Sequence record: NC_101835.1
Origin: a phage
DNA: 64,000 bases
Reading direction: 5' to 3' (one strand)
Part shown: piece after piece, positions 45,121 through 47,901 of the stretch
How positions within the stretch are numbered: the first letter of the stretch is position 1
How the letters are laid out: the number at the start of each line of letters is the position of its first letter
Position numbers and translations under genes: made by a program
Notes under the pieces: model-generated
What the model was told of the DNA's origin: nothing
Databases searched by the model: none
Seen by the model: only the letters and a program-made list of their open reading frames with translations

Positions 45121-46056
45121 ATGACAAATGAGGAACGCATGATGAAGTATTTTAATGCAGACGACCTAGTTGACAAAGGTCTTGTAACCAGCAGATATTA
45201 CCCAGATCTTGGATTAAAGATCTATAAATATGCCAGAAAAGTATTTTACAACAATTTATGGCATTTGTCTCCTCGTTTGCTGGAGTGCCGAGGCATTGTT
45301 GTAGGTAATGAAGGGAATGTTGTGGCATGGCCCTTCACAAAAGTGTTTAACTTGGGAGAAAACTCCACCAACCTGCCTGACAATAAGCTTGTGACGGCGG
45401 TAGAGAAAAAGAACGGATTCCTTGGTGTGGTATCATCTCATAAAGGTGACCTATTGTTCTCAACAACCGGGTCTCTTGATTCTCCATATTGTAACCTTGC
45501 AAAGGAAACCATCCAAGAGCAATGTGGTAATTTAGATCTTATCAAGAAGGTTATGGGCAATGAAAACATGACATTCATGTTTGAAATTTGTCACCCTTCA
45601 GATCCGCATATTGTTCAAGAAGACCATGGCGCATATTTGATAGGTTGCAGATATAATGATTCTGGAATAATGCTACCAGAAGCAGCTTTAGATGGGATTG
45701 CCAAATACCTTGGTGCAAAACGTCCTCACACTGTGCGTGAAATCCCGTTCAGCTATGCAAAAGAATTAGCTGCAGAAACAAGGGGCGAAGGGTATATGAT
45801 CCGTAAGCCTTACTACCCTTATGACCTGCAGCTGAAGATCAAGTCTCCATACTATTTGGCACGGAAGGCCGTAATGAGAGGTAAAGCATGGAAGATTTGG
45901 GATGACGATATTTTTAAACGTGTTGACGAGGAGTTTTACGGTATGGTAAAATTTATTCGTAGCAACTATACAGAAGATGTGTGGAATTGCTTATTAGAGC
46001 AGGAGCGTCGCGAGATACTGGACTGCTATTTCCACAACGAGGACTATATGCAATGA
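45121..46056 (+). CDS. RNA ligase, T4 Rnl1-like
   Basis: 311 aa; LLECRGIVV, TKVFNLGENS and nucleotidyl-transfer motif VEKKNGFLGVV parallel T4 Rnl1 ALECRGIMF, EKFFNLNENP, LTKEDGSLVS (recalled from memory). Confidence 0.7.
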   Translation: MTNEERMMKYFNADDLVDKGLVTSRYYPDLGLKIYKYARKVFYNNLWHLSPRLLECRGIVVGNEGNVVAWPFTKVFNLGENSTNLPDNKLVTAVEKKNGFLGVVSSHKGDLLFSTTGSLDSPYCNLAKETIQEQCGNLDLIKKVMGNENMTFMFEICHPSDPHIVQEDHGAYLIGCRYNDSGIMLPEAALDGIAKYLGAKRPHTVREIPFSYAKELAAETRGEGYMIRKPYYPYDLQLKIKSPYYLARKAVMRGKAWKIWDDDIFKRVDEEFYGMVKFIRSNYTEDVWNCLLEQERREILDCYFHNEDYMQ

Positions 46057-46403
46057 AGAAGTGGATTGTGTGGCTTGATGATTTTAGAGATCCGTCAGAT
46101 TATGGACTCCCAGACGCTCTGTGGCTAAAGAATTCTTCTGAATTTATGGATTTTCTTAATGATAAGAGAAAGCTCTACAGACGCGTATCTGAATGGTATT
46201 TTGACAATGATCTAGGTGAAGTTCTTGAAGGGTACGACTGCTTCTCTGCGCTAGAGGAGAAACTTGTATTCGGAAAGCCACCACTTATTGACAACGTGAT
46301 TATTTTCGTGCATACTTCTAATCCATCGGCAGCTCGTAAATTTATGCTTGCTGCTGACTCATTCAAGAAGTTTGGAATAGAGATCAAACAAAACATCTAC
46401 TAA
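46053..46403 (+). CDS. hypothetical protein
   Basis: Track ORF trimmed to ATG overlapping the RNA ligase stop (ATGA); MKKWIVWLDDFRDPSDYG...; no motif recognised. Confidence 0.4.
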   Translation: MKKWIVWLDDFRDPSDYGLPDALWLKNSSEFMDFLNDKRKLYRRVSEWYFDNDLGEVLEGYDCFSALEEKLVFGKPPLIDNVIIFVHTSNPSAARKFMLAADSFKKFGIEIKQNIY

Positions 46404-46411
46404 GGACATTT

Positions 46412-47173
46412 ATGCGACGACTTATTGTTATTTCTGGTGCTGGTTTGAGCGCAGAATCTGGTATTCCCACCTTCCGATCTGGTAGCACTGCAATGTGGGA
46501 GAATTTCAGCATCGATGAGGTGTGCAACATCCACACCTTTGCCAAGAACTACTATAAGGTGCATGACTTTTACAATGCACGTCGTGTAGCTCTGGGCAGT
46601 GTTGATCCTAACCTTGCACATCTTCGGATCGCTGAGTGGTATTCCCGCTGGTCTGGTCGTGTGATCAACCTTACTACCAATGTAGATGATTTGCTGGAGC
46701 GTGCTGGTGTAAAACATGAAGATATTTTACATGTCCACGGGTATTTGCCTGAAATCACCTACGAAGATGCTGAAGGTAATGATGTAATTAAAAATATCGG
46801 ATACACGGAGGTAGATACAGGCAAGTATACCTGGGTTAAGCCCAATGTAGTGTTCTTCGGTGAGGTTGCTCCTAAGTATACAGACATGTATGACCTGTTG
46901 ACATCTCTTACCAGCAATGATATGGTGATCCTGGTAGGTTGTTCTAACACAGTTATTAATTTTAACTGGGAATTGTTTCCTGCTACTTGTAAAGGCACAA
47001 AACTGCTGATTGTAAACAAGTATGATTCGCAGAGTGCAGATGGAAGTGGCATTTCACGTAGCGACCTTTATCAATATGAGGATCGCGGGATCCCTGTATG
47101 GTTTAACGGTGCTGTTGACGCTTTCTCTGATAAAGCATTTATTGAAACTGTAGAAAACTTTATGGAACTGTAA
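46412..47173 (+). CDS. Sir2-family (sirtuin-like) NAD-binding protein without zinc ribbon
   Basis: GAGLSAESGIPTFR, TTNVDDLLE, HVHG and VVFFGE motifs in sirtuin order; no CxxC...CxxC zinc module between HG and FGE. Confidence 0.7.
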   Translation: MRRLIVISGAGLSAESGIPTFRSGSTAMWENFSIDEVCNIHTFAKNYYKVHDFYNARRVALGSVDPNLAHLRIAEWYSRWSGRVINLTTNVDDLLERAGVKHEDILHVHGYLPEITYEDAEGNDVIKNIGYTEVDTGKYTWVKPNVVFFGEVAPKYTDMYDLLTSLTSNDMVILVGCSNTVINFNWELFPATCKGTKLLIVNKYDSQSADGSGISRSDLYQYEDRGIPVWFNGAVDAFSDKAFIETVENFMEL

Positions 47174-47187
47174 GAGGTGACCTTTTA

Positions 47188-47901
47188 ATGCTAAATACTA
47201 AACTGATCGACAACCTGGAAAAACTGTCTCAGCCTGAAAACTACCTTTGGTCTGCCAACTGGGTGGAAAACTGGAACCGTGTGGCAGCTAAAGTGAAAAA
47301 ATCATACACACCATTCGAATTACAGCTTAGCTTCATTGAGGAAGAGTTCAATGAGGTTTTGGAAGAGCTGGAGAAAGGTGATGGTGGAGATCACCTGCTA
47401 AAAGAGGCCTGCGATCTTCACGTTGTCACAAGTTATGCAGCTTATCTCGTTAATGACAATCACGAAAAGTGGTCAAACCTGTTTGATAATCCACGAGGTC
47501 TTAAGTTCAAGATCGGTGAGTTCTATGATACACTGATCGCTGCGAAAAACACATCCAAGCAAAGAGCGTCAGCTTACCGCTTAGCGGAGTTGTCAACAGC
47601 TTTGCTGTTCCAGCTTCGCGGCGATGTGTGCGGGATGATGCGTAAGGTTCTCAAATCTAATGACAGCAAGTTTGCACGGGTAAACCATCTACGGTATTCA
47701 CACGGTGCCAGTGCAGATATGCCTGCTGAACAACTCATAGAGTTGGAGATTAAAGATCTTGAGCGACGCTTTGATGGTCGCTACGAAGGTTTTGTTGCTA
47801 AGGAAGAGTTCTACAACGGTAATAAAGTTATCATATTCCTTGACAGTAAAGGTAAGATCATGAAGCCTTCGAGCTTCAAGGATGTAACAGAGTATATTTG
47901 A
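47188..47901 (+). CDS. hypothetical protein, weak MazG-like nucleotide pyrophosphohydrolase resemblance
   Basis: 237 aa; SFIEEEFNEVLEELEKGDGGDHLLKEACDLHVV resembles EExxE/ExxD helices of all-alpha NTP pyrophosphatases; weak. Confidence 0.3.
   Translation: MLNTKLIDNLEKLSQPENYLWSANWVENWNRVAAKVKKSYTPFELQLSFIEEEFNEVLEELEKGDGGDHLLKEACDLHVVTSYAAYLVNDNHEKWSNLFDNPRGLKFKIGEFYDTLIAAKNTSKQRASAYRLAELSTALLFQLRGDVCGMMRKVLKSNDSKFARVNHLRYSHGASADMPAEQLIELEIKDLERRFDGRYEGFVAKEEFYNGNKVIIFLDSKGKIMKPSSFKDVTEYI

Follow-up and report, generated by a model that had tools for sequence, protein, structure and literature searches.

The window analysed here is a stretch of 64,000 nucleotides of phage DNA (sequence record NC_101835.1) from a Vequintavirus (rV5-like) phage of Escherichia coli. 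It encodes a sirtuin within a compact group of predicted RNA-repair genes, and all six components of the group (a phosphoesterase, a kinase, an RNA ligase, a cREC protein, the sirtuin and a MazG-like protein) are located within positions 44048-47901. Over the surrounding 6 kb (44000-50000), the window shares 97-98.5% identity with over 100 deposited genomes, for example those of isim, CarlMeissner/Bas48 and MiataMamis. Its identity to deposited Vequintavirus genomes is 97-100%, with relatives of V5 at 97-98%, and the sirtuin protein is 100% identical to a product annotated as cobB in E. coli O157 typing phage 14.

Four genes on the plus strand form a unit whose spacing is compatible with co-transcription. 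The first encodes a divergent T4 Rnl1-family RNA ligase of 311 amino acids (AA; 45121-46056). Its stop codon overlaps the start codon of a stand-alone cREC domain protein (116 AA, 46053-46403) as ATGA, and the ligase therefore belongs to the same unit as cREC. The sirtuin (253 AA, 46412-47173) follows after a gap of 8 nt and the MazG-like protein (237 AA, 47188-47901) after another gap of 14 nt. A GC-rich, terminator-like hairpin on the plus strand (AGCCGGG-TAAT-CCCGGCT, 47908-47925; 7 bp stem with 6 GC pairs) begins 7 nt past the stop codon of the MazG-like gene and is likely the end of the four-gene unit, although we only infer its function as a terminator because the T-run is weak. A scan for sigma-70 promoters was uninformative, with sites no commoner than in shuffled sequence, and co-transcription thus rests on gene spacing and the terminal hairpin. 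The preliminary description had given the cREC, sirtuin and MazG-like open reading frames (ORFs) their exact plus-strand coordinates and had considered them a co-transcribed trio. The short gaps and the hairpin after the last stop codon agree with this, but the unit is larger and includes the upstream ligase.

The other two genes are transcribed divergently. A P-loop kinase (44610-45032) and a calcineurin-like metallophosphoesterase (44048-44602) are encoded on the minus strand, and the kinase operon is separated from the ligase operon by an intergenic gap of 88 bp (45033-45120). This gap is presumed to be the promoter region. It contains sigma-70-like hexamers on the minus strand (45077-45049, 10/12) and no good sigma-70 match on its plus strand. 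In a comparison with an 85-93% identical relative (L002), the ratio of nonsynonymous to synonymous substitution rates (dN/dS) was 0.07 for cREC, 0.10 for the sirtuin and 0.055 for the MazG-like gene. We therefore conclude that these three genes are real and constrained by purifying selection.

The sirtuin matches the Pfam family SIR2 (PF02146) over profile positions 1-178 of 180 (E = 6.9e-28; 98.2 bits, cut-off 24) as well as phrog_2162 (E = 2e-108), both far above chance. It carries the sirtuin Rossmann motifs GAGLS (residues 9-13), GIPTFR (17-22), TNVDD (89-93), HVHG (107-110) and FFGE (148-151), including those quoted in the preliminary description. Invariant across 43 homologues are G9, A10, G11, S16, F21, R22, N90, D92, the catalytic H109, F148, F149 and E151, together with Y54, R57 and R58. 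The last three are part of an FYNARR segment that aligns with FYHYRR of human SIRT5 and FYNARR of E. coli CobB, with Y54 and R57 corresponding to Tyr102 and Arg105 of SIRT5. These two SIRT5 residues are an anion-binding pair that binds the acyl carboxylate and defines class III sirtuins. By alignment, Y54, R57 and R58 could be phosphate holders in the phage protein.

Among solved structures, E. coli CobB (E = 2.4e-21) and human SIRT5 are closest in sequence. An AlphaFold2 model built from 43 homologues is confident, with a predicted local distance difference test (pLDDT) score of 89 and a predicted template modelling (TM) score of 0.88. A Foldseek search of the PDB placed CobB at the top (TM 0.74-0.86), together with SIRT5 and archaeal Sir2, and the best 50 matches listed were all canonical sirtuins. 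The protein thus has a class III (CobB/SIRT5)-like core and belongs to a phage-dominated clade. It shares with CobB and SIRT5 the motifs for binding nicotinamide adenine dinucleotide (NAD), the catalytic histidine, the Tyr-x-x-Arg pair and the length of the small module. It differs from them in its missing zinc cysteines, its RNA-repair operon and its scores against the NCBIfam CobB models, which do not reach the cut-offs (NF001753, 123 bits versus 243; NF040867, 105 versus 320). Furthermore, the proline in the substrate loop of CobB (GTSGHVYP, general form GTSxxVxP) aligns with N183, which is nearly invariant in the phage clade, and the substrate cleft is predicted to be altered relative to CobB. 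A Pfam scan of the sirtuin found sirtuin families and one chance-level DUF only, without homology to Tpt1/KptA, and the fold search likewise recovered sirtuins. The clade comprises 967 database proteins at E <= 1e-5 and is present in 975 of 50,697 phage records (~2%), mainly in rV5-like, Mydovirus-like, T5-like, phi92-like and large Vibrio phages.

The sirtuin possesses three cysteines (C38, C177 and C193), all of them outside the stretch that runs from the catalytic HG to FFGE (residues 109-151). A CxxC pair in the zinc-module segment was found in none of the 112 close homologues where this segment could be delimited. The module nevertheless has the same length as that of CobB, and the model places strands at residues 110-118, 124-128 and 142-146 (pLDDT 94-97 in this region). 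As modelled, it is a zinc-ribbon-shaped sheet without ligands and not a deletion. The earlier statement that the protein has no CxxC...CxxC zinc module is right about the missing zinc site, but the module itself is kept. Three distant phage sirtuins (L063, L065 and L066) retain CxxC...CxxC in a module of similar length, and the loss of the cysteines in the phage clade is therefore derived. Some chromosomal sirtuins of marine gammaproteobacteria (L081-L088; Marinobacterium and related genomes) are likewise cysteine-free.

The preliminary description regarded this architecture as more like that of the NAD-consuming SIR2 effectors of bacterial defence systems. Defence SIR2 NADases (ThsA, DSR1/2, SIR2-HerA and SIR2-APAZ; SIR2_2) indeed share with the phage protein the NAD-binding sirtuin superfamily and the lack of a canonical Cys4 site. 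The phage sirtuin differs in that it has no sensor or partner domains and its top-ranked fold neighbours are all canonical sirtuins. It scores below the cut-off for SIR2_2 (E = 0.097; 13 bits, cut-off 24.5), and a PADLOC scan gave no defence-SIR2 match, the sole match being PDC-S65 (E = 0.0094, 34 residues). We thus reject the assignment as a defence-SIR2 effector; a predicted structure that groups with canonical deacetylases is the outcome that the preliminary description itself had named as refuting. The same description suggested that the enzyme could counter NAD-depleting immunity. This is unsupported, as the enzyme would itself consume NAD+ and tblastn searches of the window with the nicotinate phosphoribosyltransferase/nicotinamide phosphoribosyltransferase (NAPRTase/NAMPT)-like and phosphoribosyl pyrophosphate (PRPP)-synthetase proteins of a phi92-like phage returned no match. 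The 48 kb of the Bas48 annotation that we inspected list no NAPRTase, NAMPT or PRPP synthetase, and a role in NAD+ salvage or counter-depletion is set aside. It is plausible, more broadly, that an NAD-binding sirtuin beside RNA-repair genes does something other than ordinary protein deacetylation.

The gene upstream of the sirtuin encodes cREC, a cyclic-phosphate-processing receiver-like domain by predicted activity. The 116-AA protein matches PF20274 (cREC_REC; E = 9.1e-14, 52.3 bits, cut-off 27) and phrog_1479 (E = 6e-33). Its receiver-type acidic pocket is conserved across 22 homologues, with D9 and D10 nearly invariant and D51, D53, T88, S89 and K96 invariant, and a profile search found no solved relative in the PDB. 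The family was named in a 2021 jumbo-phage paper (PMC7824862), and its describers, in a later paper by the same authors, report it as lacking experimental characterisation (PMC9503650). We found cREC in 342 phage records and the MazG-like gene in 298. Contig L042 encodes a 214-AA protein (332-973) with cREC at residues 101-195 and an N-terminal region of ~100 residues without a Pfam match. This protein may be a divergent Nudix-cREC fusion, and the cREC ORF is annotated as a nudix hydrolase in related genomes.

The last gene of the unit encodes a 237-AA protein that can be assigned as a predicted MazG/dimeric-dUTPase-like pyrophosphohydrolase, an all-alpha nucleoside triphosphate pyrophosphohydrolase of the MazG/HisE/dimeric-dUTPase superfamily. 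It matches phrog_671 (nucleotide pyrophosphohydrolase, E = 5.4e-22). Its score against the Pfam PRA-PH/MazG models is 13.7 bits, below the cut-off of 21.3, and orthologues with 29-34% identity reach 30.4 and 25.0. The protein has a helical fold with EExxE ... ExxD metal-binding motifs. It differs from dimeric dUTPases and MazG/HisE pyrophosphohydrolases by an additional C-terminal beta-hairpin region with an invariant KGKIMKPSSF sequence, and it has no sequence-level match to solved structures and no match to Pfam dUTPase_2. Both partners of the sirtuin are labelled hypothetical in many GenBank records and had been considered unassigned in the preliminary description; the PF20274 and phrog_671 matches provide assignments for both. 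Several deposited genomes and a UniProt/BFVD entry label the MazG-like gene as a putative Sir2-like protein, which looks like a name carried over from the adjoining sirtuin gene.

The RNA ligase matches RNA_lig_T4_1 (E = 1e-14; 55 bits, cut-off 28) and phrog_562 (E = 1.3e-65), and its score against TIGR02308 (E = 6.6e-10) is far under the cut-off. The kinase carries the P-loop GLPGSGKST and matches AAA_33 (E = 3.1e-10), phrog_2071 (E = 9e-59) and the polynucleotide kinase family phrog_505 (E = 3.4e-10). It is annotated as a polynucleotide kinase in Bas48 and is a candidate polynucleotide 5'-kinase. The phosphoesterase matches Metallophos (E = 5e-06), Metallophos_2 (E = 3.6e-06) and phrog_547 (E = 5.6e-52), is called a "putative phosphoresterase" in Bas48 and resembles Aquifex aq_1665 (1xm7, E = 4.6e-11) in the PDB. 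It is a candidate 2',3'-cyclic/3'-phosphate end-healing enzyme. Its start codon is ambiguous: a TTG at 44707 (219 AA) would overlap the kinase gene by 98 nt, and the ATG at 44602 used in Bas48 (184 AA) leaves a gap of 7 nt and lies right at the metallophosphatase DxH motif. Deposited genomes disagree on this start. PDB sequence searches with the RNA ligase, the kinase and the cREC and MazG-like profiles found nothing useful.

Gene neighbourhoods were surveyed at 76 viral loci with a sirtuin relative, counting neighbours within 6 kb. The MazG-like gene was found at 13 of these loci, the phosphoesterase at 13, the kinase at 12, the RNA ligase at 11 and cREC at 9. All loci with these repair neighbours belong to rV5-like or Mydovirus-like phages, and the Mydovirus-like loci differ from the window in gene order and strands. 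The gene after the sirtuin in T5 encodes a HAD_SAK_2 ("Swiss Army Knife RNA repair") phosphatase, a family found three times among 150 neighbour ORFs. This adjacency is an independent link of the sirtuin to RNA-end chemistry. The phi92-like contig L078 (3376-12662) has a cluster of genes for cREC, a T4_Y16D protein, a phosphoesterase homologue, an ATP-dependent DNA ligase and the MazG-like protein. This cluster adjoins divergently transcribed genes for NAPRTase/NAMPT-like and PRPP-synthetase proteins, so that in this other phage group the cREC/MazG pair is tied to NAD salvage; the sirtuin is encoded elsewhere in phi92-like genomes.

The six-gene set was described by Iyer, Burroughs, Anantharaman and Aravind (2022, Viruses 14:1977, section 3.7.3; PMC9503650) as a type-2 sirtuin-centred RNA repair neighbourhood, for which Escherichia phage V5 and Proteus phage Mydo served as the prototypes. 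The published set consists of a sirtuin, a T4-like RNA ligase, cREC, a nucleotide kinase and a MazG pyrophosphatase, with or without a calcineurin-like phosphoesterase (PMC9503650). Its authors proposed that the sirtuin strips 2'-phosphates from RNA as KptA/Tpt1 does and that its partner enzymes either open the cyclic phosphate or act on the by-product, ADP-ribose cyclic phosphate (PMC9503650). The window holds every listed component without substantive difference, and we conclude that the locus is that system. It is thus already known, as a computational prediction from genome comparison, and the preliminary description was mistaken in calling it undescribed. Beyond the published account, our analysis adds the operon layout, the class III-like core with Y54 and R57, the derived loss of the zinc ligands and the dimeric-dUTPase-like fold of the MazG partner.

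Our favoured reading, held tentatively and at a little less than even chances, is that the six genes form a phage module for healing and sealing nucleic acid ends, most likely those of tRNA, as in the published model, and that the sirtuin contributes an NAD-dependent step on phosphate. It builds on the observed protein families, intact catalytic residues, linkage, purifying selection and recurrence in rearranged order; every substrate and every reaction in the following scheme is predicted. Host anticodon nucleases or other metal-independent RNases would leave 2',3'-cyclic-phosphate and 5'-OH ends. The kinase would phosphorylate the 5' end, cREC and/or the calcineurin-like phosphoesterase would open the cyclic phosphate, and the RNA ligase would seal the break. 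Wherever a 2'-phosphate is left over, it would then be removed by the sirtuin with NAD+ in a manner like that of Tpt1/KptA. In a first step, a phosphate oxygen would attack C1'' of NAD+ and nicotinamide would leave; in a second, the 2''-OH, activated by His109, would attack the phosphorus and free ADP-ribose 1''-2'' cyclic phosphate. cREC could linearise this by-product and the MazG-like enzyme could then cleave its pyrophosphate bond, thereby taking the place that Nudix has in phages with a Nudix-cREC fusion.

Sirtuin deacylation and the Tpt1 reaction both start with an oxygen nucleophile at C1'' of NAD+, followed by attack of the 2''-OH on the transferred group, and because of this parallel in two steps, phosphate chemistry by a sirtuin is plausible. 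As far as alignments can indicate, the sirtuin keeps the Tyr/Arg anion pocket, lacks the zinc ligands and has an altered substrate loop, a combination compatible with a changed, anionic substrate. The more specific form of the proposal is that the sirtuin evolved from a CobB-like deacylase into an NAD-dependent RNA 2'-phosphotransferase, or an ADP-ribosyltransferase of phosphate ends. The locus would then carry out a yeast-type tRNA repair by way of a 2'-phosphate intermediate and entirely with parts unrelated to Trl1 and Tpt1, in which cREC is the cyclic phosphodiesterase and the dUTPase-like enzyme clears the by-product. We consider this possible and assign it roughly one chance in three. 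With Tpt1/KptA in the Trl1 pathway of yeast and plants, the system would share the logic of NAD+-dependent 2'-phosphate removal after end opening and ligation and the release of ADP-ribose cyclic phosphate as a side product (after PMC9503650). The folds are unrelated (ADP-ribosyltransferase-type in Tpt1/KptA versus the Rossmann fold of the phage sirtuin), and the likeness is one of functional analogy only.

The module can also be compared with the Pnkp-Rnl1 tRNA-repair system of phage T4. Both combine an Rnl1-family ligase with a 5'-kinase near phage tRNA genes. T4 Pnkp carries a fused HAD phosphatase that the kinase of the window lacks, and the window adds a separate calcineurin-like phosphoesterase, cREC, the sirtuin and the MazG-like protein. 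T4 tRNA repair needs no NAD-dependent step.

The most serious rival, though somewhat unlikely in our judgement, is that the sirtuin works as an ordinary protein lysine deacylase of the CobB/SIRT5 type (a deacetylase or desuccinylase) and resets the acylation of host or phage proteins. It would then stand beside the repair genes through gene order inherited among early or accessory genes and not through a common function. The arguments for this rival overlap with those against RNA-end repair. The nearest relatives by sequence and by fold are bona fide protein deacylases, and the invariance of the catalytic histidine and of the class III Tyr/Arg pair fits a deacylase. With a pI of 4.9 the protein is also acidic, an uncommon property among RNA-binding enzymes that stand alone. 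Some of the linkage may be synteny inherited within one subfamily, since the rV5-like and Mydo-like phages both appear to belong to Vequintavirinae. Phi92-like phages carry cREC, the phosphoesterase homologue, the ATP-dependent DNA ligase and the MazG-like gene in a cluster that lacks sirtuin, RNA ligase and kinase; their sirtuin is encoded away from this cluster, in a neighbourhood with no recognisable RNA-repair genes, and a KVP40-like phage sirtuin also has unrelated neighbours. The association of the MazG-like gene with the ATP-dependent DNA ligase is at least as close as its association with the sirtuin. Among cellular relatives, for which the 80 best loci were sampled (at most 47% identity to the phage sirtuin), most of the nearest keep the CxxC pairs, and tblastn with the repair genes of the window as queries found no RNA-repair neighbours at any of the 80 loci. 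The cysteine-free sirtuins of Marinobacterium and Haliea are lone chromosomal genes in housekeeping contexts, among transporters, signalling genes and ordinary metabolic genes. The published jumbo-phage context (2H, Nudix-cREC and PIN) was not reproduced in our sample, where one jumbo-phage sirtuin lies near a Metallophos gene only, and we found no experimental follow-up of the repair prediction in the searchable literature. A calcineurin-type phosphoesterase could in principle heal the 3' end fully and leave no 2'-phosphate. Against the deacylase, cREC and the MazG-like gene closely flank the sirtuin in an operon that starts with an RNA ligase, and the HAD_SAK_2 phosphatase of T5-like phages provides a second, independent tie to RNA repair. 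Its zinc ligands are all gone, the peptide-loop proline is replaced, and its scores lie far under every CobB equivalog cut-off.

Other explanations concern the partners or a different use of NAD. The 237-AA protein might be a housekeeping dNTP-pool enzyme (a dUTP or dNTP pyrophosphatase of the dimeric-dUTPase/MazG type) that merely adjoins the sirtuin. This would affect one partner only and fits any reading of the sirtuin; we regard it as somewhat unlikely, as the gene begins only 14 nt past the sirtuin within the hairpin-bounded unit, shows no dUTPase_2 match and co-occurs with cREC in ~300 phage records. It is improbable that, along the lines of the preliminary description, the sirtuin, cREC and the MazG-like protein form an anti-defence trio that destroys or converts immune signalling nucleotides or toxic ADP-ribose derivatives apart from RNA repair. 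The idea draws on the predicted processing of cyclic ADP-ribose-type phosphates by cREC, which is often fused to Nudix (PMC9503650, PMC7824862), on the nudix hydrolase label given to the cREC ORF in some phages, on nucleotide hydrolysis by MazG-type enzymes, and on the NAPRTase/NAMPT-like and PRPP-synthetase genes that adjoin the phi92-like cluster. The sirtuin, however, uses up NAD+ and does not restore it, the known phage NAD-restoring pathways rely on other enzymes (PMC13464706), and the libraries searched gave no match to PADLOC models or known anti-Thoeris/CBASS families. The co-operonic RNA ligase and the divergent kinase would also be left unexplained. Some Tpt1 enzymes cap phosphorylated RNA or DNA ends in vitro, and the sirtuin might in a similar way ADP-ribosylate nucleic acid ends (for example 5'-/3'-phosphorylated RNA or DNA ends) or proteins as a stable modification, without 2'-phosphate removal. 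We judge this the most improbable of the alternatives. It shares the gene context of RNA-end repair, sirtuins with ADP-ribosyltransferase activity exist (PMC9503650), and the neighbourhood includes an ATP-dependent DNA ligase as well as a PdeM-like phosphoesterase signal, but no Macro, NADAR or ARH eraser gene was seen at the locus and the catalytic histidine for the second (2''-OH) step is invariant.

Several further features surround the locus. Six tRNA genes are clustered at 40432-41156, 3.4 kb from the repair genes. One tRNA-like gene on the minus strand (40589-40687; 97-99 nt) has a long variable arm and was called "tRNA-???" by ARAGORN, with an Rfam tRNA score of 35.5 bits. Its anticodon loop reads TTTTTAA (UUU) and the Bas48 orthologue is annotated as tRNA-Lys. 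An atypical tRNA-Lys(UUU) at this distance from RNA-repair genes deserves attention because tRNA-Lys(UUU) is a classic target of anticodon nucleases. Past the hairpin, 47964-49811 encodes two small conserved ORFs (phrog_7684 and phrog_14585) and an ATP-dependent DNA ligase, all three of which also accompany the repair genes of Mydovirus-like phages in a different order. GenBank records MG065635-MG065676 are labelled "Campylobacter phage" (host C. jejuni) but share 97-100% identity over the locus with rV5-like phages of E. coli, and the host label looks doubtful.

The literature already contains the locus with its annotation as well as the hypothesis, which makes the finding a rediscovery, and the biochemical question is the worthwhile part. 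The genes are present in well-studied and easily handled phages (BASEL Bas48 and relatives), so that the question is directly testable. If the sirtuin is a 2'-phosphotransferase, it would become the first demonstrated case of a sirtuin that acts on a phosphate and not on an acyl group, and phosphate instead of acyl transfer to ADP-ribose would constitute a new class of sirtuin reaction. Should the prediction hold for the module, it would provide first activities for the cREC family and for the ~230-AA dUTPase-like family. It would also establish an NAD-dependent branch of phage tRNA repair, which could explain resistance to anticodon-nuclease defences.

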